42,779 nt of DNA, from the IMG/VR virus record IMGVR_UViG_3300045988_181578; one strand, written 5' to 3'. The notes below the pieces were generated by a model. That model was not told the origin of the DNA, did no database searches, and saw nothing but the letters and a program-made list of their open reading frames with translations. The DNA is from a virus. Both the position numbers and the translations under genes were made by a program. Shown one piece after another: positions 6,309-34,670 of this stretch. Positions within the stretch are counted from its first letter, which is position 1; every line of letters starts with the position of its first letter.

Positions 6309-6758
6309 TTATACGTTTGGATTTGTCGAGAACAAGATTTTATCGCTTGTTTCAAAAACCATTCTTTGGTTTTGGACGGTTGTCCATAAACCAGTTTGTC
6401 GATTAAGCGTTTCTGTTTTTCTTTTTCGTTTTTCATTTGTCCGCTCCCTTAATTCTTCGTTGATTTCATTGTTCACTTCCGACCAGTCAATAGGCTTTAC
6501 CGTTTTTAGGTATTCAATAACCGCGCGACAGTCGGGGTCGTTATTGTCCCAAGGCTTCGACGGCACTTTTGACCAATCGGGCTCTTTCGTTGACCAAGTT
6601 CTTTTTTTGGCTTGTTTTTTCAGAGCTTCCGCCTTTTGAGCATAATTTGCTTTAACGCGACACTTCACAGAACAGTATTTCTGGTGGCTTCCGTGTTGGC
6701 GTTCTTTTTCTTTGAAGTATGCGCCGCACCAAGCGCATTTAATTAGTTTTTCAGACAT
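6309..6758 (-). CDS. zinc-ribbon protein, function unknown
   Basis: CAWCG...C..KC pattern CxxC...CxxxC. RBS gaggg. Confidence 0.4.
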   Translation of the reverse strand: MSEKLIKCAWCGAYFKEKERQHGSHQKYCSVKCRVKANYAQKAEALKKQAKKRTWSTKEPDWSKVPSKPWDNNDPDCRAVIEYLKTVKPIDWSEVNNEINEELRERTNEKRKRKTETLNRQTGLWTTVQNQRMVFETSDKILFSTNPNV

Positions 6759-28204: not shown

Positions 28205-28645
28205 ATGAAAGCTTACAGATATAATTCTGAAAACAAAAAGTATGAAGGAGAAACGACGTGTCAAATCGACCCATTGGAATCGAAACTGGCAGGCAAAGAA
28301 GTTTACTTGTTGCCCGCGGATTGTACCTATGAAGAACCTCTGCCCGAAAAAGAGGGTTTTGACATCATCTTCAACGGTACGGCTTGGGAATACAAGGAAG
28401 AAGAAAAGAAACCCGAAGACGAGCCTTACGTTCCGACTGAAAAGGAAAAGACCCAATGGGCTATCTGGAAATTGAAGTCCAAGCTCGCCGAAACGGATTA
28501 CAAAGTGTTAAAATGCACCGAAGCGTCGTTGTGCGGACAAGAATTGCCGTATGATTTAGATGCCGTTGTTTCCGAGCGCGACGGGTGGCGGTCTCAGATT
28601 AACGAGCTTGAGGAAAAGCTCAAGACGATTAAAGAATCCGAATAA
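28205..28645 (+). CDS. hypothetical protein (acidic, possible fibre-assembly or accessory protein)
   Basis: RBS gaaagga. Followed by a terminator. Confidence 0.45.
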   Translation: MKAYRYNSENKKYEGETTCQIDPLESKLAGKEVYLLPADCTYEEPLPEKEGFDIIFNGTAWEYKEEEKKPEDEPYVPTEKEKTQWAIWKLKSKLAETDYKVLKCTEASLCGQELPYDLDAVVSERDGWRSQINELEEKLKTIKESE

Positions 28646-28651
28646 GAAAGG

Positions 28652-28677
28652 GGCGGGATTTTTCCCGCCTTTTTAAT
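28652..28677 (+). terminator. rho-independent terminator
   Basis: Stem ggcggga / tcccgcc with loop ttttt, then tttttaat. Confidence 0.6.
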
Positions 28678-29276
28678 ATGACTGTTTACGCATATTTACG
28701 GGTGTCATCTGTTTCTCAAGACGAACAAAATCAGCGGCAAGGTGTGGATGCTAAAGCCGTTGCTTTGAATGTTCACATCGACAAATACATTGTTGACAAA
28801 GTTTCGGGGACAAAAGAGCCGAAGCTCCGTAATCTTGGAAGCCTTGCCCGACGTTTGAAATCGGGCGATGTTGTTATTGTTTCGGAGTTGTCCCGCCTGT
28901 CCCGCCGTATATTCACGCTTTGCCGACTATTTGAAGACTTGCTTGAAAAGGGCGTTCGTGTTTACTCGGTGAAAGAAAACTTTGTTCTTGATGATTCGCC
29001 GCAGTCGAAAATGCTGATATTTTGTTTTGGGATGTCCGCTGAAATTGAACAACGTATGATTTCTGCTCGGACGCGGGAAGCTTTGGCGTATCGTAAACAA
29101 CAGGGCATCAAATTAGGACGTCCAGTAGGCGCAAAGACGAAAAAGCATAAGTTAGATGTTTACGCCGAAAAAATCGCCCTGTGGCTAAAAAAGGCGTTTC
29201 GCGCAGAAAGATTGCAAAACGGTGCAAGGTGTGTGAAAAAACGCTTCGCAAGTGGTTGCGTAAAACGAACGTTTAA
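28678..29276 (+). CDS. Gin/Hin/Cin-family serine DNA invertase; the HTH domain lies in the -1 frame after the A-run at 29187-29193
   Basis: YAYLRVSSVSQDEQNQRQ (Ser nucleophile), DKVSGTKEPKLRNLGSLARRLKSGDVVIVSELSRLSRR and MISARTREALAYRKQQGIKLGRP match the Gin catalytic domain. The -1 frame encodes KKGVSRRKIAKRCKVCEKTLRKWLRKTNV*, which matches the Gin HTH GIPRKQVALIYDVALSTLYKK. The 0 frame instead reads through into fibre cassette V2 (track ORF 28678..29571). Confidence 0.75.
29187..29193 (+). other. A_AAA_AAG heptamer at the invertase catalytic-domain/HTH junction (candidate -1 slippery site, or a homopolymer indel)
   Basis: cta aaa aag in the 0 frame. A -1 slip yields LWLKK-GVSRRKIAKR..., the exact frame that encodes the HTH. 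Confidence 0.5.
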
Positions 29277-29291
29277 TCTGCCGAACTTTAA
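29266..29291 (+). other. inversion crossover site A (core AACGTTTAATCTGCCGAAC)
   Basis: One of four copies of the about 19-bp core AACGTTTAAYSTGCCGAAY. Overlaps the invertase stop and the start of cassette V2. Confidence 0.55.
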
Positions 29292-29571
29292 TGGCAAAAC
29301 GGTGTGGCAACGAACAGATCATCAAGTTGGAATTCCGACTGTAGGTCAACTGCCGAATATTACGGGTGGGGTAAATATAGACCACGCAAACCTTCTAAAT
29401 GCGTTTGGGTGCTGTACCGCCGATTCTAATATAGGGCAATACTATGGTACGCAGTTAGAAAAACACCTGCAAAGATTGTTGATTGACGCTTCTAAATCAT
29501 CGTCAATTTATCAAAACGTTAATCTTGTCGTTCCAGCAAACAATTCTGTTGTGTTTTGTATACGATACTAA
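29266..29571 (+). other. silent tail-fibre C-terminal cassette V2 (TFNLPNFNGKTVWQ ... FCIRY*)
   Basis: Homologous to the C-terminal 112 aa of the expressed fibre (FN.PN.N, LPNITG, ASKSSSIY, VVP, FCIRY). Has no start codon of its own. Convergent with, and abutting, the fibre gene 3' end. Confidence 0.7.
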
Positions 29572-30500
29572 TATCTGATGCAAAAATGTATCACCCCAGA
29601 TGCAGGGACGACTTGCGTTTCTCCGTCTTTATAAATTGAACTTGAGCGCGACGCATTAAAATCTTGAGCTGTTTGTCCATCCCATACGTACGTCAAAGTA
29701 CAAGCCAAACCACCACCATCCTTATAAGTTCCGGTGTTTATAGCACCAGTTCCATTATACAAAACAGGGCGCCTACTATCTTGACTTGTACCTTGAGCTG
29801 TCCAACTGGCGGTGATATTTGGTAACCTACCAGCCAGTATTGTTCCAATAGAAAGCGTACTAGATTGAAACACCGTTTTATTGTTAAGATTCGGCACATT
29901 AAACGTTGTATTTCCGTCCCCTGCACCCCACGTTGTCCCGATGACATTGAACAGACGCGCGTAAGTGATGCGGGAAATAGCCGCGCCGTTGCAAATCAGA
30001 TAACCGTCGGGAGCGTCATTTGCAGGCCAAGTGATAATTATTCCTGTCGGAAGTCCCGCGTCAATAAAAGCCCAATGCACGCCGTCAAGATATTCGGGAT
30101 TTGTTAAAAAGTTAAACGTGTTGTTTTCGACAAGGGAATAAACCGCCGTCGGTTTTCCGCCGACAATCGCCCACAACAAAGCCCCCTGCGGATACCCGCC
30201 GATAGCGTCTGAAACTGCTTGATTGAACGAATATGTACCGCCGTTTTGAGCGAAGAAGTTATGTTGCGAAACGGTGTTAAAAAGACCGTTAAAGTCTTGC
30301 TGTTTCGGGGGAAGTCCCGATACCTGTGTCGGCAAAGGATTTTCAATTACGGGCATACGGGTAATGGCAGGAAAACCCTCTTGGAAAGATGCACGATTCG
30401 TCCCTGTTGCGCCGTTCGGAATAGCGTTAATGTTTTCGCTTGTCGCCTGTGCGGCAATCGGTTGTGGGATTACGACGGGGGTTGTATTTGAAGTCGCCAT
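29568..30500 (-). CDS. tail fibre protein (P2 gpH / Mu S-like); constant N-terminal part plus variable C-terminal cassette V1
   Basis: C-terminus TFNVPNLNNKTVFQ...ASRSSSIYKDGETQVVPASGVIHFCIRY. RBS aggag. Gene order W-J-I-H. Confidence 0.7.
   Translation of the reverse strand: MATSNTTPVVIPQPIAAQATSENINAIPNGATGTNRASFQEGFPAITRMPVIENPLPTQVSGLPPKQQDFNGLFNTVSQHNFFAQNGGTYSFNQAVSDAIGGYPQGALLWAIVGGKPTAVYSLVENNTFNFLTNPEYLDGVHWAFIDAGLPTGIIITWPANDAPDGYLICNGAAISRITYARLFNVIGTTWGAGDGNTTFNVPNLNNKTVFQSSTLSIGTILAGRLPNITASWTAQGTSQDSRRPVLYNGTGAINTGTYKDGGGLACTLTYVWDGQTAQDFNASRSSSIYKDGETQVVPASGVIHFCIRY
29887..29910 (-). other. inversion crossover site B inside the fibre gene at the constant/variable boundary
   Basis: Minus-strand acaACGTTTAATGTGCCGAATct encodes TFNVPN. 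Inverted relative to sites A and C. Confidence 0.55.
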
Positions 30501-31118
30501 TTATTTAACTCCTATGCTGTCTACGACAAAAACGCCGTTGTTAAAAGGTTTAAGTCCGCTTCCCTCGAAACCGAACGTTTCTTGCGGCGGAATCGGTGTA
30601 ATGGATGTAATTTTAACGCCAGACGGGCGCGGCAGAAAATCGTTTAATTGCAAAACGATTTCTTCTTCCGCCGTCGGAAAAAAGTCTAAAATGTACGTTA
30701 TGGACATATTCAAATTGTCCTGCACATAAGACTTGTTGTCTGGATGATTGAAGAAAATTTGCCGAATAAACGTGTTTACGTTTGAAAACGTCGGCGCGTG
30801 AGAGTTCTTATACAGTTTTGCGTTCAAAAGCAGTCTGTAAGACTCCGTCGGAATGGGGACAAGTTCGCCGTCGGCGTTCGTATACAAAGGACGTTCCAAA
30901 TTCAATAAAAATCCCCACAACGTCAAACCAAATTCGTTTGCCGTCTGAATGTTCAAAACGTCATCAATCCAGCGTTCCCAAAAATCAGAAACGGCATCAT
31001 CGTAAAAGTTTTGTTTAAACGCAATAAGGGCGTTAAAGTTCGGCGCGTTGTCGTACTGCCAAAGGATAACGTTTCTTGCATTAAAAGCGATTTCTTTTGC
31101 GACATCGTAATTCTTCAT
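30501..31118 (-). CDS. baseplate/tail protein (P2 gpI-like)
   Basis: Position between the J-like and fibre genes; ATGA coupling. 205 aa. Confidence 0.45.
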   Translation of the reverse strand: MKNYDVAKEIAFNARNVILWQYDNAPNFNALIAFKQNFYDDAVSDFWERWIDDVLNIQTANEFGLTLWGFLLNLERPLYTNADGELVPIPTESYRLLLNAKLYKNSHAPTFSNVNTFIRQIFFNHPDNKSYVQDNLNMSITYILDFFPTAEEEIVLQLNDFLPRPSGVKITSITPIPPQETFGFEGSGLKPFNNGVFVVDSIGVK

Positions 31119-32320
31119 TGAACCACCACCGAAACATCATCAGACGTTAAAAGCGCGCATTGTTTTGAAAGGATTGAAACGCCACTGACTGTTTGTTGTT
31201 CGCCTTTTTTACCCGCAACGACTTGAACAATTTTAATTTCAGGGATTGCTTCGGAAACGGCGGAAGCGATTTCAAAAGTGTTTACATTATTCCCGATTAC
31301 AAGCCCCTCGACGTTCGGATTTTTGTTTTGCGCCCAAGCGACAACGGCATCTTTTACATCTTGATAAATGTTGTTTCCCTGATATTTGTTCAAAGAAACC
31401 GTGATTGTCGTTTGAACTTCGATATATTCGGGGCGATTGAACGTAACTTGGACGTATCGGTCGTTTATCGCATCGTATCCTAAACCTGTTTCGGACTGTC
31501 CGCTAATCGCCGTGTATCCGCATCCGACGTTTTTTGCGGACGCAATGGCATTGTAAATGTCTTGAACAAGTCCGCCGTCCACAATGATGCACAAAGAGTG
31601 CGGAGCAACAGAAACACCGTTAACTTCAACTGCCGTGTCGTTATAATTCTCGTAATACCAAGAAGATATAACGCCGTTTACGCCCGACAGTTTTCCTTTG
31701 ATAGAATCGTTATATCCGTTCGCTAATTGTTGAGCGTACAAAATACGTTCTCGATAAGAAGAATCGCTTTCTTTTTCATATCCGATAATGGCGGGGTCGG
31801 GATTGTTTATCGTTTCCCACCCCGAAACGCTTGAAACGATTTCCGTTAATGTTCCGACGGGACAAGGAATTTGTCCGAGTTCAACCGACTGAAAATAAAC
31901 TTCCGCCTTGCCGTTTGTGTCCAGTTGAACCGTTCTTTCGCTTTCAAAAACATTTCCGTCCGTTGTCTTTGCTTGTGAACCCACAGGGATAATAGTCCCC
32001 ACAACGCCCGCCAAAGAAACAAGAACTTGCGTCGGTTGCGCATATTTTCGATAGACTAAAACTTTTGCGCCGATTGCGTCCAAAAAATCGCCCGATGCCG
32101 TTTGGATGTTTTGAGAATTTGCCATTAAAGCGACAACGCGGATTACCTGTTGACGCAATAACGTATCGTGTTCGATCAAACGACCCTGCGGCGTTGACGT
32201 TTCAATGGACAAATCCGCCCCGAAAATATCTTTATATTCGTTTTCAACGTCCGTTTTTACGTCGCCTGTATTCGGAATAACAACGCCCGTGGACGTAACA
32301 TAATCGTACAAATCAGCCAT
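31115..32320 (-). CDS. baseplate J-like protein (P2 gpJ / Mu gp47-like)
   Basis: 401 aa. Position W-J-I-H. Confidence 0.6.
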   Translation of the reverse strand: MADLYDYVTSTGVVIPNTGDVKTDVENEYKDIFGADLSIETSTPQGRLIEHDTLLRQQVIRVVALMANSQNIQTASGDFLDAIGAKVLVYRKYAQPTQVLVSLAGVVGTIIPVGSQAKTTDGNVFESERTVQLDTNGKAEVYFQSVELGQIPCPVGTLTEIVSSVSGWETINNPDPAIIGYEKESDSSYRERILYAQQLANGYNDSIKGKLSGVNGVISSWYYENYNDTAVEVNGVSVAPHSLCIIVDGGLVQDIYNAIASAKNVGCGYTAISGQSETGLGYDAINDRYVQVTFNRPEYIEVQTTITVSLNKYQGNNIYQDVKDAVVAWAQNKNPNVEGLVIGNNVNTFEIASAVSEAIPEIKIVQVVAGKKGEQQTVSGVSILSKQCALLTSDDVSVVVQ

Positions 32321-32322
32321 TT

Positions 32323-32667
32323 TTAACCCGCAATCGTTGTTTCACCGTAAACCGTCGAAACGTTCATTTCATATTTTAAAGTGCTGTCTTCAATTCGCAT
32401 TGCAAAATTCACCACAGAATTTACGCCGTTAATCGCTTCAACGTTATTAAAAATCTGTTTTCTAAACAAAAAAACGTCGGGCGGCGAATTGAAAACAGAG
32501 CCAAAATAATCAACGCCGACATTTGTAGCCAACTGACATTCGCTTAAAACAGTCTGAATCCGCTGTTTTATGACCAATGCCAAAGCGTCAATATCAGACA
32601 CCAACGCCAGATTGCCAAGCGCATCTAAATAAACGTCATTGTCCGAATTTGTCGCTATCGTTTTCAT
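32323..32667 (-). CDS. baseplate wedge protein (P2 gpW / GPW_gp25-like)
   Basis: 114 aa. Precedes the J-like gene. RBS aaagg. Confidence 0.5.
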   Translation of the reverse strand: MKTIATNSDNDVYLDALGNLALVSDIDALALVIKQRIQTVLSECQLATNVGVDYFGSVFNSPPDVFLFRKQIFNNVEAINGVNSVVNFAMRIEDSTLKYEMNVSTVYGETTIAG

Positions 32668-32739
32668 TGAACGCCTTTCATTTCGTTAAATCCTATAACA
32701 ATTTGAAATCTTTGTAAAGGCAAAATCACGGGACGAAAA

Positions 32740-32762
32740 ATCAACGTTTAACGTGCCGAATT
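32740..32762 (+). other. inversion crossover site C (AACGTTTAACGTGCCGAAT)
   Basis: Conserved core at the start of cassette V3. Confidence 0.55.
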
Positions 32763-33058
32763 TTAATAACAGAATTCCGCAGGGAAGTGGCAGCCGTGGA
32801 ACGGTCGGTGCGTATTTGTCGGAAAGCTTGCCAAATATCACAGGTACTTTTGGTGTCCCTAAATATGAAATAGTGAATGTAGGAACTGGAGCTTTTACAT
32901 CTACTGTGAATGGAACAGAATATAACATGTCATCACTCGAAGTTAACAGAAATGGGCACTTTTTCTATTTTTCAGCTTCCCGTTCATCTTCTACCTATCA
33001 AGACAATGCACCCGTTCAGCAAGCGGCGACGGTGGTTAATTTCTGCATCCGATATTAG
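32742..33058 (+). other. silent tail-fibre C-terminal cassette V3 (TFNVPNFNNRIPQG ... FCIRY*)
   Basis: GTG-initiated ORF in the track. Shares LPNITG, SASRSSSTY and FCIRY with the fibre C-terminus. Confidence 0.7.
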
Positions 33059-33357
33059 TATTTGATGCAGAAATTAATGTTAATTCCAGACGGTACAACA
33101 AGATTGTCGGAACGTGAGTAGGCGGACGACGAGCGGGATGCGTCAAAATTAAAAGCTCTGTTAGAATTCGTAGTCCCCGTAAGGTGAACATATTGTACGT
33201 CAATTCCGTTTAAAGCAAACGCCCCAGAAGCACTATACCACAAATTTCCACCTTGTTGAACATAGCCTGTTATTTTCGGCAAACTACCATTAAAGGATGT
33301 CCCCACAACCCCACCCTGCCAAACGGTATGATTGGTGGAGTTCGGCACATTAAACGT
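33055..33357 (-). other. silent tail-fibre C-terminal cassette V4 (TFNVPNSTNHTVWQ ... FCIKY*), convergent with V3
   Basis: Shares LPKITG, DASRSSSAY, VVP and FCIKY. A TAG stop lies immediately upstream of the conserved core. Confidence 0.7.
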
Positions 33358-33360
33358 TTT
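33339..33360 (-). other. inversion crossover site D
   Basis: Minus-strand aaAACGTTTAATGTGCCGAACtc. Confidence 0.55.
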
Positions 33361-33531
33361 TTTTGCTTTCCTAAAAAGACTTATTGATAAAAAGAACAGA
33401 TTGTTTTAACCTATAAGTAGTCAAATTTTTATAGATATAACGAAAATGAAAAATTACAACGTGAAAGCCAAGGAATGGCAACCGCTTTCAGACATTATTC
33501 ATGTAAACGTCTTTATAGAGGAAGCAGAATA

Positions 33532-33780
33532 ATGGAACACGTCATCGAAAAACTTAAAGCGTGGGGCTGGGTGATAATGACAATTTTCACCGTGTCCTGT
33601 TTTATCCAAACACTTATTCAGTTGTCCCCGCGTGTTACGGAATTGGAACGTCGCGCCGCCATTACAGAGGGCAAGGTTTCAATGATTGAGGTTAAACTCG
33701 ATACAGTTTTGCACCAGACGACCGAAACAAAGAACGACGTAAAGGACATTTACCGAATCTTAATTGGGGAAAAAAAATAA
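33532..33780 (+). CDS. small membrane protein with N-terminal TM and C-terminal coiled coil (holin/XhlA-like candidate)
   Basis: WGWVIMTIFTVSCFIQTLI TM, then ELERRAAITEGKVSMIEVKLD. RBS ggaag. First gene of the lysis cassette. Confidence 0.35.
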   Translation: MEHVIEKLKAWGWVIMTIFTVSCFIQTLIQLSPRVTELERRAAITEGKVSMIEVKLDTVLHQTTETKNDVKDIYRILIGEKK

Positions 33781-34305
33781 ATGATTCAAGCTTTGATTTT
33801 TAGCGTTTTCGGTGCTTTTTTTCGCCGCTGGTTCGGCGGGGGCTTTGGAAAGTTCGGCGACGTTTCGCGTTTTTGGAAATATCTTTCCCTCTCAATCGCT
33901 TTTATCGCCGCTTGGTTTTATCTAAATGGTATTGATTGGACGGCTTTGAAAATGTATGCCGCCCTTGTTTCTTTTATGGTGTTTTGGGCGGTGGGACACG
34001 GGACTTGGTTCGTATACTGGGATGATACGGCGGCGGCAGAGGGGCGAATCCCGCTTATTGATAAAATTGTTTGGTTCTGTATCGGCGTTGATGAATCTCG
34101 GACGTTTTGGGGAAATTGCTTTGGAATGTTTGTCCGATATACGATTACGGCAATTCCCGTTGCAATCTTCACAAGCCCTCTTTTTTTGACCGCTGGCGCG
34201 ATTGTCGCACTTTCCTATGTTCCCGCAGGGTTTAAACAGGATACGCGCCTTGGTGAATGTTTGGCGGGCTTCTTTGTGTTCTTTTTGCTCTGGTGGTGCT
34301 TATGA
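33781..34305 (+). CDS. multi-pass membrane protein (putative holin or lysis accessory protein)
   Basis: 174 aa with 4-5 hydrophobic segments. Lies immediately upstream of and ATGA-coupled to the peptidase gene. Confidence 0.4.
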   Translation: MIQALIFSVFGAFFRRWFGGGFGKFGDVSRFWKYLSLSIAFIAAWFYLNGIDWTALKMYAALVSFMVFWAVGHGTWFVYWDDTAAAEGRIPLIDKIVWFCIGVDESRTFWGNCFGMFVRYTITAIPVAIFTSPLFLTAGAIVALSYVPAGFKQDTRLGECLAGFFVFFLLWWCL

Positions 34306-34670
34306 CGAAAAATTACTTTTCACAAAACGAAGAAGCTTGCCGTTGTTGCGGGTGCGGCGGTCTTGTCCCCGACTTTCGTGAAAAATTAAACAAGGCGCGC
34401 GAACTTGCGGGCATCCCGTTTGTTTTAACGTCTGCTTTTCGGTGTGAAAAATATAATCGAGAAGTCGGCGGTTCGGAAACGTCTTCACACTTGGCGGGTC
34501 TTGCCGTTGATATTAAATGTACGGACGGCTGGAGTCGTTTCAAAATTTTGTCCGCATTATTGGAAGTCGGCTTTTGTCGTATCGGAATCGGAAAAACATT
34601 CATTCACGTTGACGATGACCTAACAAAACCGCAAGGCGTTGTCTGGGATTATTACCGAAAACAGGGATAA
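34302..34670 (+). CDS. peptidase M15-family endolysin (D-Ala-D-Ala carboxypeptidase-like, Zn-dependent)
   Basis: LTSAFRCEKYNREVGGSETSSHLAGLAVDI and a later H/D give the SxHxxGxAxD pattern of Peptidase_M15. Confidence 0.75.
   Translation: MTKNYFSQNEEACRCCGCGGLVPDFREKLNKARELAGIPFVLTSAFRCEKYNREVGGSETSSHLAGLAVDIKCTDGWSRFKILSALLEVGFCRIGIGKTFIHVDDDLTKPQGVVWDYYRKQG

Follow-up and report, generated by a model that had tools for sequence, protein, structure and literature searches.

A frameshifted serine invertase in a phage tail-fibre inversion system: a probable recent single-base deletion rather than a programmed frameshift

The DNA invertases Mu Gin, P1 Cin, e14 Pin and Salmonella Hin, which serve the G, C, P and H segments, consist of a Resolvase catalytic domain followed by a C-terminal helix-turn-helix (HTH), and in serine recombinases the HTH is needed for binding to the crossover sites. 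Systems with several sites and several fibre C-termini served by one invertase are represented by the Min multiple-inversion system of plasmid p15B and by shufflon-like switches. The locus described here lies in a 42,779-nucleotide (nt) viral DNA, IMG/VR record IMGVR_UViG_3300045988_181578, the whole of which we call the window. The gene at positions 28678-29276 is a mutated member of the small serine recombinases of the Gin/Hin/Cin/Pin DNA-invertase kind. Like those genes it adjoins invertible DNA, in which tail-fibre C-terminal cassettes are swapped between short inverted sites, and its best solved relative is Gin (PDB 4m6f, E 1e-12). It differs from Gin in sequence (about 30% identity), in having four sites and four cassettes rather than two, and in that one of the sites, site A, overlaps the invertase stop codon. 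Two further differences set it apart from Gin-type systems: a 2.85-kb block of baseplate and constant fibre genes is itself invertible, and the invertase gene is frameshifted. As in Min, which also has a serine invertase, one enzyme serves several crossover sites and several fibre C-termini, but the layout is different, with two cassette pairs flanking a constant module in the window. We consider it quite probable that the frameshift is a real and recent 1-nt deletion that has inactivated or nearly inactivated the invertase.

The start codon, ATG 28678, opens a 297-amino-acid (aa) reading frame on the plus strand (28678-29571). PF00239 (Resolvase) covers residues 3-143 of this frame with an E-value of 4e-30, and YAYLRVSS at residues 4-11 contains the serine motif YxRVS of the N-terminal Resolvase catalytic domain. 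A first-pass annotation of the window had placed the catalytic domain in frame 0 and a Gin-like HTH in the -1 frame only, with an A_AAA_AAG heptamer at the junction, and our analysis agrees on each of these points. In a three-frame translation of 29099-29300, frame 0 reads ...EKIALWLKKAFRAERLQ... (or, over a longer stretch of the linker and junction, ...GIKLGRPVGAKTKKHKLDVYAEKIALWLKKAFRAERLQNGARCVKKRFASGCVKRTFNLPNFNGK...). The HTH is encoded in the -1 frame alone, ...VAKKGVSRRKIAKRCKVCEKTLRKWLRKTNV*, which is open between TAA 29148-29150 and TAA 29274-29276, and thus is not in the same polypeptide as the catalytic domain. Frame 0 passes the junction as CTA AAA AAG (29185-29193), with A_AAA_AAG (29187-29193) in the correct phase for a tandem -1 slip. 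The parts of the gene are as follows.

28678..29193, plus strand: catalytic domain, E-helix and linker (codons 1-172, ending L-K-K), placed by PF00239 (residues 3-143, E 1.5e-30), by the alignment to Gin 4m6f and by 98% identity to the contiguous orthologue P0001.
29186..29193, plus strand: site of the 1-nt deletion (CT-AAAAAAG) and of the resulting in-phase A_AAA_AAG (29187-29193), placed by orthologue DNA alignments with three alleles.
29193..29276, plus strand: HTH DNA-binding domain, shifted by -1 from the frame of the catalytic domain, with stop TAA 29274-29276, placed by translation, by its contiguity in orthologues and by the Gin HTH alignment.

A -1 slip at the heptamer would yield a full-length invertase of 199 aa, as had been proposed. 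This product reads LWLKKGVSRR across the junction, identical to the orthologues. It matches Resolvase and, weakly, HTH_23/HTH_28 (E about 1e-4), and aligns over residues 5-191 to the structures of Mu Gin (PDB 4m6f and 3uj3; E about 1e-12), including the Gin recognition helix region GIPRKQVALIYDVALSTLY. That a slip restores the orthologue sequence supports only possible leakiness, not evolved control. The unshifted frame remains open to 29571, crossing recombination site A and entering a tail-fibre C-terminal cassette of approximately 100 aa that ends in FCIRY; the fusion of catalytic domain and fibre fragment described earlier is thus correctly read. Frame 0 runs on into this cassette because the end of the invertase gene, its last codons and stop, falls within site A, and frame 0 happens to be the frame of the cassette. 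There is no nearby stop after the junction, and the result is a meaningless 125-aa extension. The proper annotation is therefore a frameshifted invertase, not a 297-aa 'invertase' fusion.

The slipped 199-aa sequence was used to search a protein collection of 5.8 billion clusters, which returned 718 homologues. The closest of these, P0001 (98% identity), P0002 (96%), P0003 to P0007 (87-91%) and P0008 (80%), are each one uninterrupted chain of 199-208 aa with the sequence ...KIALWLKKGVSRRKIAKRCKVCEKTLRKWLRKTNV. Of over 100 additional homologues, most are close to 200 aa long and carry the HTH, with a minority that are longer or have been shortened by lesions. In the corresponding DNA, the junction is TGG CTT AAA AAA GGC (CTTAAAAAAGG) in loci L001-L005 and L013, and TGG CTA AAA AAA GGG (CTAAAAAAAGG) in L006, L007, L014 and L015. 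The window and the identical locus L012 have CTAAAAAAGG / TGGCTAAAAAAGGC, which is exactly one base fewer (CT + A6). Judging from these alignments, the lesion is a 1-nt deletion, in which either a T was lost from CTT or an A was lost from the A7 run of a CTA ancestor. The first-pass annotation had supposed that the run might properly hold 7 rather than 6 A. This is so for the distant relatives L006, L007, L014 and L015 (CTA + A7), but the closest relatives also have 6 A and differ from the window in having CTT in place of CT.

The heptamer itself consists of the conserved Lys-Lys-Gly codons (AAA AAA G). In the orthologues this A6G run is in the non-slippery phase, and the deletion has shifted it into the slippery phase. 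It sits exactly at the frame junction because the deletion lies in or next to the A run. The two-frame arrangement with an in-phase heptamer is not conserved among the orthologues and is seen in one strain only, and the lineage of the window has a single lineage-specific HTH substitution, CGG to CGC, which is synonymous in the HTH frame. Outside the protein collection, a blastn search of 28600-29650 against INPHARED phages gave no match, and tblastn recovered only relatives of less than 41% identity. A scan of metagenome_contigs and viral_contigs for the exact junction pattern with 0 or 1 extra base gave no match, the pattern being limited to the junction's own flanking bases, in which the A7 relatives differ. 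A genome_contigs scan with the invertase found nothing.

The -1 sites of dnaX and of IS3/IS911-type elements have the same A_AAA_AAG in the correct phase, with the downstream domain in the -1 frame. The window differs from them in that the heptamer has neither an upstream Shine-Dalgarno (SD) sequence nor a downstream structure, is not conserved, and arose from a deletion. SD-like GGAGG or AGGGAG is absent from the 25 nt upstream, and 29160-29186 holds no SD-like motif. The 97 nt following the heptamer (29194-29290) fold at -24.4 kcal/mol, compared with -24.8 +/- 3.1 kcal/mol for dinucleotide shuffles (z 0.13). The downstream hairpin or pseudoknot that a programmed site might have been expected to show is not found there, and an Rfam scan of the region detected no frameshift element, its sole match being a sub-threshold small RNA on the upstream terminator hairpin. 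We count 47 AAAAAAG strings in the window where 45 would be expected; as it is as frequent as chance, the heptamer by itself is not significant. Bare heptamers without stimulators have been measured in E. coli at 2-10 times a background of 0.055% (PMC4066793). For annotation in general, an in-phase 'canonical' heptamer at a frame junction can be a by-product of an indel in a Lys-Lys run, and a check of orthologues settles the matter quickly.

The exact 297-aa fusion protein is present in the collection from both JGI/IMG and the European Nucleotide Archive (ENA), on 7 contigs of 20-50 kb. One of these, L012, a MEGAHIT k119 short-read contig, matches the window at 100% identity over 12,894 nt. 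The repaired 199-aa invertase of this allele is absent from a 15-billion-protein collection. Recurrence on 7 contigs, together with the identical MEGAHIT contig, makes a random assembly error unlikely. The two options offered by the first-pass annotation, a homopolymer length error and programmed frameshifting that throttles the invertase, thus bracket the best reading, a real 1-nt deletion, without hitting it. The former is made unlikely by the recurrence of the fusion; the latter is contradicted, on that annotation's own criterion, by contiguous genes in orthologues of 80-98% identity and in more than 100 distant homologues, and by the lack of a stimulator.

The following sequence of events would account for these observations. 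The invertase serves a tail-fibre inversion system of four sites and four cassettes, and an ancestral CTT AAA AAA GGC or CTA AAA AAA GGC at its Leu-Lys-Lys-Gly codons would have become CTAAAAAAGGC by a single-base deletion. Normal translation would now give the catalytic domain, then about 30 out-of-frame residues, then the silent fibre cassette. Such a product, having no DNA-binding domain, should be unable to bind the crossover sites, so that the inversion switch would be off or nearly off and the fibre fixed as HN+VB. If a spontaneous -1 slip took place, or if RNA polymerase inserted one more A, the wild-type protein would be restored exactly, at a rate expected to be well under 1% without stimulators. 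The sequences directly show the deletion relative to orthologues, the contiguity of those orthologues, the lack of stimulators and the recurrence of the allele on several contigs; both the loss of function and the level of leakiness are what we infer from them.

The sites of this system were identified by a perfect 18-nt core, AACGTTTAAYSTGCCGAA, of which there are four copies in the window against 0.02 expected, in the order + - + -. Each site is followed by a cassette of about 100 aa that starts TFN(V/L)PN and ends FCI(R/K)Y, and the four cassettes are 34-42% identical to one another. The dyad read from the sequence is AAAACG-AA-CGTTT. By eye, this centre appears to resemble hix, hixL being AAAACC-AA-GGTTTT, which would be a further likeness to the Gin/Cin/Pin/Hin systems. 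The sites, cassettes and expressed fibre gene are listed here.

29268-29285, plus strand: core of site A, AACGTTTAATCTGCCGAA, a perfect core match.
29256..29281, plus strand: probable 26-bp extent of site A, centred on AA 29268-29269, by analogy with hix and gix.
29890-29907, minus strand: core of site B, a perfect core match.
32743-32760, plus strand: core of site C, a perfect core match.
33341-33358, minus strand: core of site D, a perfect core match.
29270-29571, plus strand: silent tail-fibre C-terminal cassette VA, recognised by cassette similarity, which frame 0 of the broken invertase enters.
29568-29905, minus strand: cassette VB, joined at site B to the constant part of the fibre.
32745-33058, plus strand: cassette VC, of the second pair, bounded by site C.
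33055-33356, minus strand: cassette VD, of the second pair, bounded by site D.
29568..30500, minus strand: expressed tail-fibre gene of 310 aa with a Collar domain (PF07484, E 1e-20), formed by the constant N-terminal part and VB joined through site B.

The invertase gene ends inside site A, which covers its last two codons and its stop, and the presumed crossover dinucleotide AA (29268-29269) of the site is in the penultimate codon. The final codons and the TAA stop are therefore supplied by the cassette side. All four sites keep AACGTTTAA, and thus every isomer retains the ending ...N V stop. A site likewise overlaps the 3' end of the invertase gene in L001, L004 to L007, L014 and L015. No such overlap exists in L002 and L013, whose site is approximately 100 nt downstream. 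The four-site layout of the window recurs in L004, L006, L014 and L015; just two recombination sites are present in L013.

Sites B and C enclose a 2.85-kb block of genes with the Pfam names sheath-initiator, Baseplate_J and wedge, together with the fibre N-terminus. This block is on the minus strand in the window and on the plus strand in L002, L009 and L021. This difference in strand between genomes indicates that the constant baseplate-fibre module, which lies between the two cassette pairs, is itself invertible.

Locus L021 (SFEB01000065.1, 9.5 kb) belongs to the metagenome-assembled genome (MAG) Clostridiales bacterium W0P28.020 and was found as one binned MAG contig by a genome_contigs scan with baseplate J. 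Its Baseplate_J is 95% identical to that of the window, and the contig carries no invertase, sites or cassettes. The region equivalent to 30189-34655 of the window is inverted in L021 and joined directly after the baseplate hub gene, which shows the plasticity of the baseplate-fibre module. As a single clue from a binned contig, L021 hints weakly at a Clostridiales host.

Inversion occurs in relatives that have an intact invertase. L014 and L015, from the neighbouring ENA assemblies ERZ808259 and ERZ808274, both have an intact gene and are inversion isomers, with the same flanks and different cassettes (L014 4824-7263, L015 240-2662). Moreover, the end of L014 is the reverse complement of the invertase 3' end joined to another cassette, and this fold-back is direct evidence of mixed orientations in one sample. 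The W-J-I-H block is inverted between the window and L002/L009. In six distinct contigs with an intact invertase (L002, L003, L005, L006, L014 and L017), the contig end falls in a detected site or no more than about 50 nt from one. A seventh, L008 (= L016), stops 1 nt past the gene, at a point occupied by a site in other loci, though none was detected in L008. Genomes with a defective invertase (the window, L012, L013 and L009, on contigs of 42-44 kb) are assembled across the region without a break. Of the fibre isoforms of the window's strain, the 15-billion-protein collection contains HN+VB and none of the three alternatives that were predicted. A single orientation and assembly through the region, which are indirect evidence from small numbers, fit a locked switch in this strain. 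Two short contigs with the fibre N-terminus, L019 and L020, end about 60-70 nt before site B and are uninformative on orientation.

Loss of the invertase is evidently common and tolerated among the relatives. An independent 1-nt deletion (TTAGAC to TTAAC) affects the linker of L013 (protein P0122; ENA SAYO22-1 scaffold_982, 44.5 kb; 6470-6480) at a point 31 nt 5' of the window's lesion. It removes the sole +1-frame stop before the A6G run, so that the shifted frame of L013 also meets A_AAA_AAG in the slippery phase. The commonest defective form, on at least 12 contigs, is that of L009 (protein P0046; IMGVR_UViG_3300045988_182280, 6330-6350), in which the invertase breaks off at codon 113 and continues, precisely from the site centre, into the left half-site GGGACGGAAATAC-AA of a true recombination site. 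The invertase sequence at this break (29008-29027 of the window) is AAAATG-CT-GATATTTT, which resembles a weak pseudo-site. This suggests that the L009 form arose by recombination at a pseudo-site within the invertase gene, and the enzyme may have destroyed its own gene. Truncation at about codon 100 is seen in three other homologues, P0124, P0125 and P0130; the frame of P0093 shifts near codon 120, while P0094 and P0075 bear a deletion or rearrangement. The window thus adds a further example of gut-phage host-range switches that are repeatedly turned off by invertase decay, through point deletions here and apparently through pseudo-site self-recombination in relatives. This bears on how long phase-variable receptor-binding systems remain active in nature.

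Several observations weigh against a simple recent inactivation. The other six contigs with the fusion may not be independent samples. That only one orientation occurs in this strain rests on few contigs, and the exact fusion, used as the query, itself picks out this orientation at site A. Contig ends bear on inversion activity only indirectly: some Logan contigs are built with short k-mers, and the 23-40-nt site repeats of certain relatives could be enough to interrupt an assembly. Apart from the deletion, the two halves of the gene show no lesion, and the four sites and four cassettes are likewise intact; hence either the deletion is young or some selection still acts on the gene. Finally, two independent 1-nt deletions, in the window and in L013, fall in the same stretch of approximately 35 nt, where the shifted frame stays open as far as A_AAA_AAG and meets it in phase, and such clustering would be the pattern expected from selection for leaky alleles. 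In that alternative, which we think unlikely, the gene is a hypomorph kept by selection: a -1 slip on A_AAA_AAG, or transcriptional slippage on A6, supplies a little wild-type invertase, and the lower inversion rate is useful or tolerated. Stated more generally, and still improbably, the deletion alleles would be naturally selected leaky hypomorphs for which a latent A_AAA_AAG, in the +1 frame of the Lys-Lys-Gly codons, acts as a 'savior' slippery site. A 1-nt deletion in the preceding 35 nt or so would then still give a trickle of native or near-native invertase, and a fast fibre switch would become very slow rather than being killed, which would be a simple natural tuning of inversion frequency. 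The exact restoration of the orthologue sequence by a slip and the intact gene, sites and cassettes agree with it, as does the position of two of the three single-base frameshift alleles seen within this 'rescuable' stretch, the whole gene being 600 nt long. A parallel is offered by frameshift pseudogenes that undergo phenotypic suppression, with a 1-nt deletion at a shifty run and a -1 slip that restores the native protein ('savior indel' correction, PMC5009743; non-programmed frameshift suppression, PMC10861913), and translational 'correction' of indels is a recognised category (PMC5009743); in the window invertase, however, suppression is predicted only. There is no stimulator, and bare heptamers in E. 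coli remain under about 0.6% (PMC4066793). The clustering argument is post hoc and concerns two alleles, and ascertainment favours late frameshifts, since the short proteins made from early ones fall into other clusters. The gene is often knocked out completely (the L009 type and P0124, P0093 and P0094), which indicates that loss is tolerated without rescue, and no alternative fibre isoform of this strain was found. A Clostridiales host, if that is the host, may also have tRNA-Lys(CUU), which would reduce slippage at AAG; the window contains no tRNA genes to inform lysine decoding.

The remaining explanations fare less well than a real deletion. A sequencing or assembly artefact, in which the real genome would carry CTT+A6 or CT+A7 with an unbroken 199-aa gene, has in its favour that a single base in or next to a homopolymer of 6-7 nt is the classic place for an indel error and that A7 relatives exist. 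We nevertheless hold it to be distinctly improbable, because the same 297-aa protein is found on the 7 contigs in two repositories, with the MEGAHIT contig identical over 12.9 kb, because the repaired 199-aa sequence is nowhere in the collection, and because short-read assemblies seldom miscount a run of 6-7 nt. It is very unlikely that the junction is an evolved programmed -1 ribosomal frameshift that sets the dosage of invertase in the manner of dnaX or the IS3 transposases. The canonical in-phase heptamer and the presence of the two domains in overlapping 0 and -1 frames are what such a site would show. However, the arrangement is confined to one strain and the orthologues are contiguous, with the heptamer out of slippery phase; no SD, hairpin or pseudoknot accompanies it, and frame 0 has no nearby stop. 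In addition, resolvase, invertase and recombinase go unmentioned in the text of a survey that looked across genomes for frame transitions conserved in prokaryotes (PMC3711429). A split gene, in which the catalytic domain and a separately initiated 31-aa HTH peptide act as two polypeptides, seems to us barely credible. An open reading frame with a GTG start does exist at 29181-29276, but no SD precedes GTG 29181 and all relatives are single-chain. In the structures of gamma-delta, Gin and Hin, moreover, the E-helix carries the HTH on the same chain, and they work as a unit. A functional fusion of catalytic domain and fibre was considered as well and rejected, as the chimera has no precedent and the chain between its parts is out of frame.

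Immediately upstream of the invertase gene is a strong, G+C-rich hairpin, GGCGGGA-TTTT-TCCCGCC (GGCGGGATTTTTCCCGCC TTTTT; 28652-28677, plus strand), whose T run ends 3 nt before the ATG. The hairpin scan lists only the minus-strand reading of this element. From its sequence the hairpin looks like the terminator of the upstream late operon. No sigma-70-like promoter was found in 28400-29700, and the invertase may be expressed solely by read-through of the terminator, which would itself keep expression low.

A 146-aa open reading frame at 28205-28645 is located just 5' of the invertase gene and outside the invertible DNA. Its relatives have faint or weak Pfam matches to the tail-fibre assembly families Caudo_TAP_N and Phage_tail_APC. 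Because this gene lies outside the invertible DNA, a single chaperone would have to serve all four cassettes.

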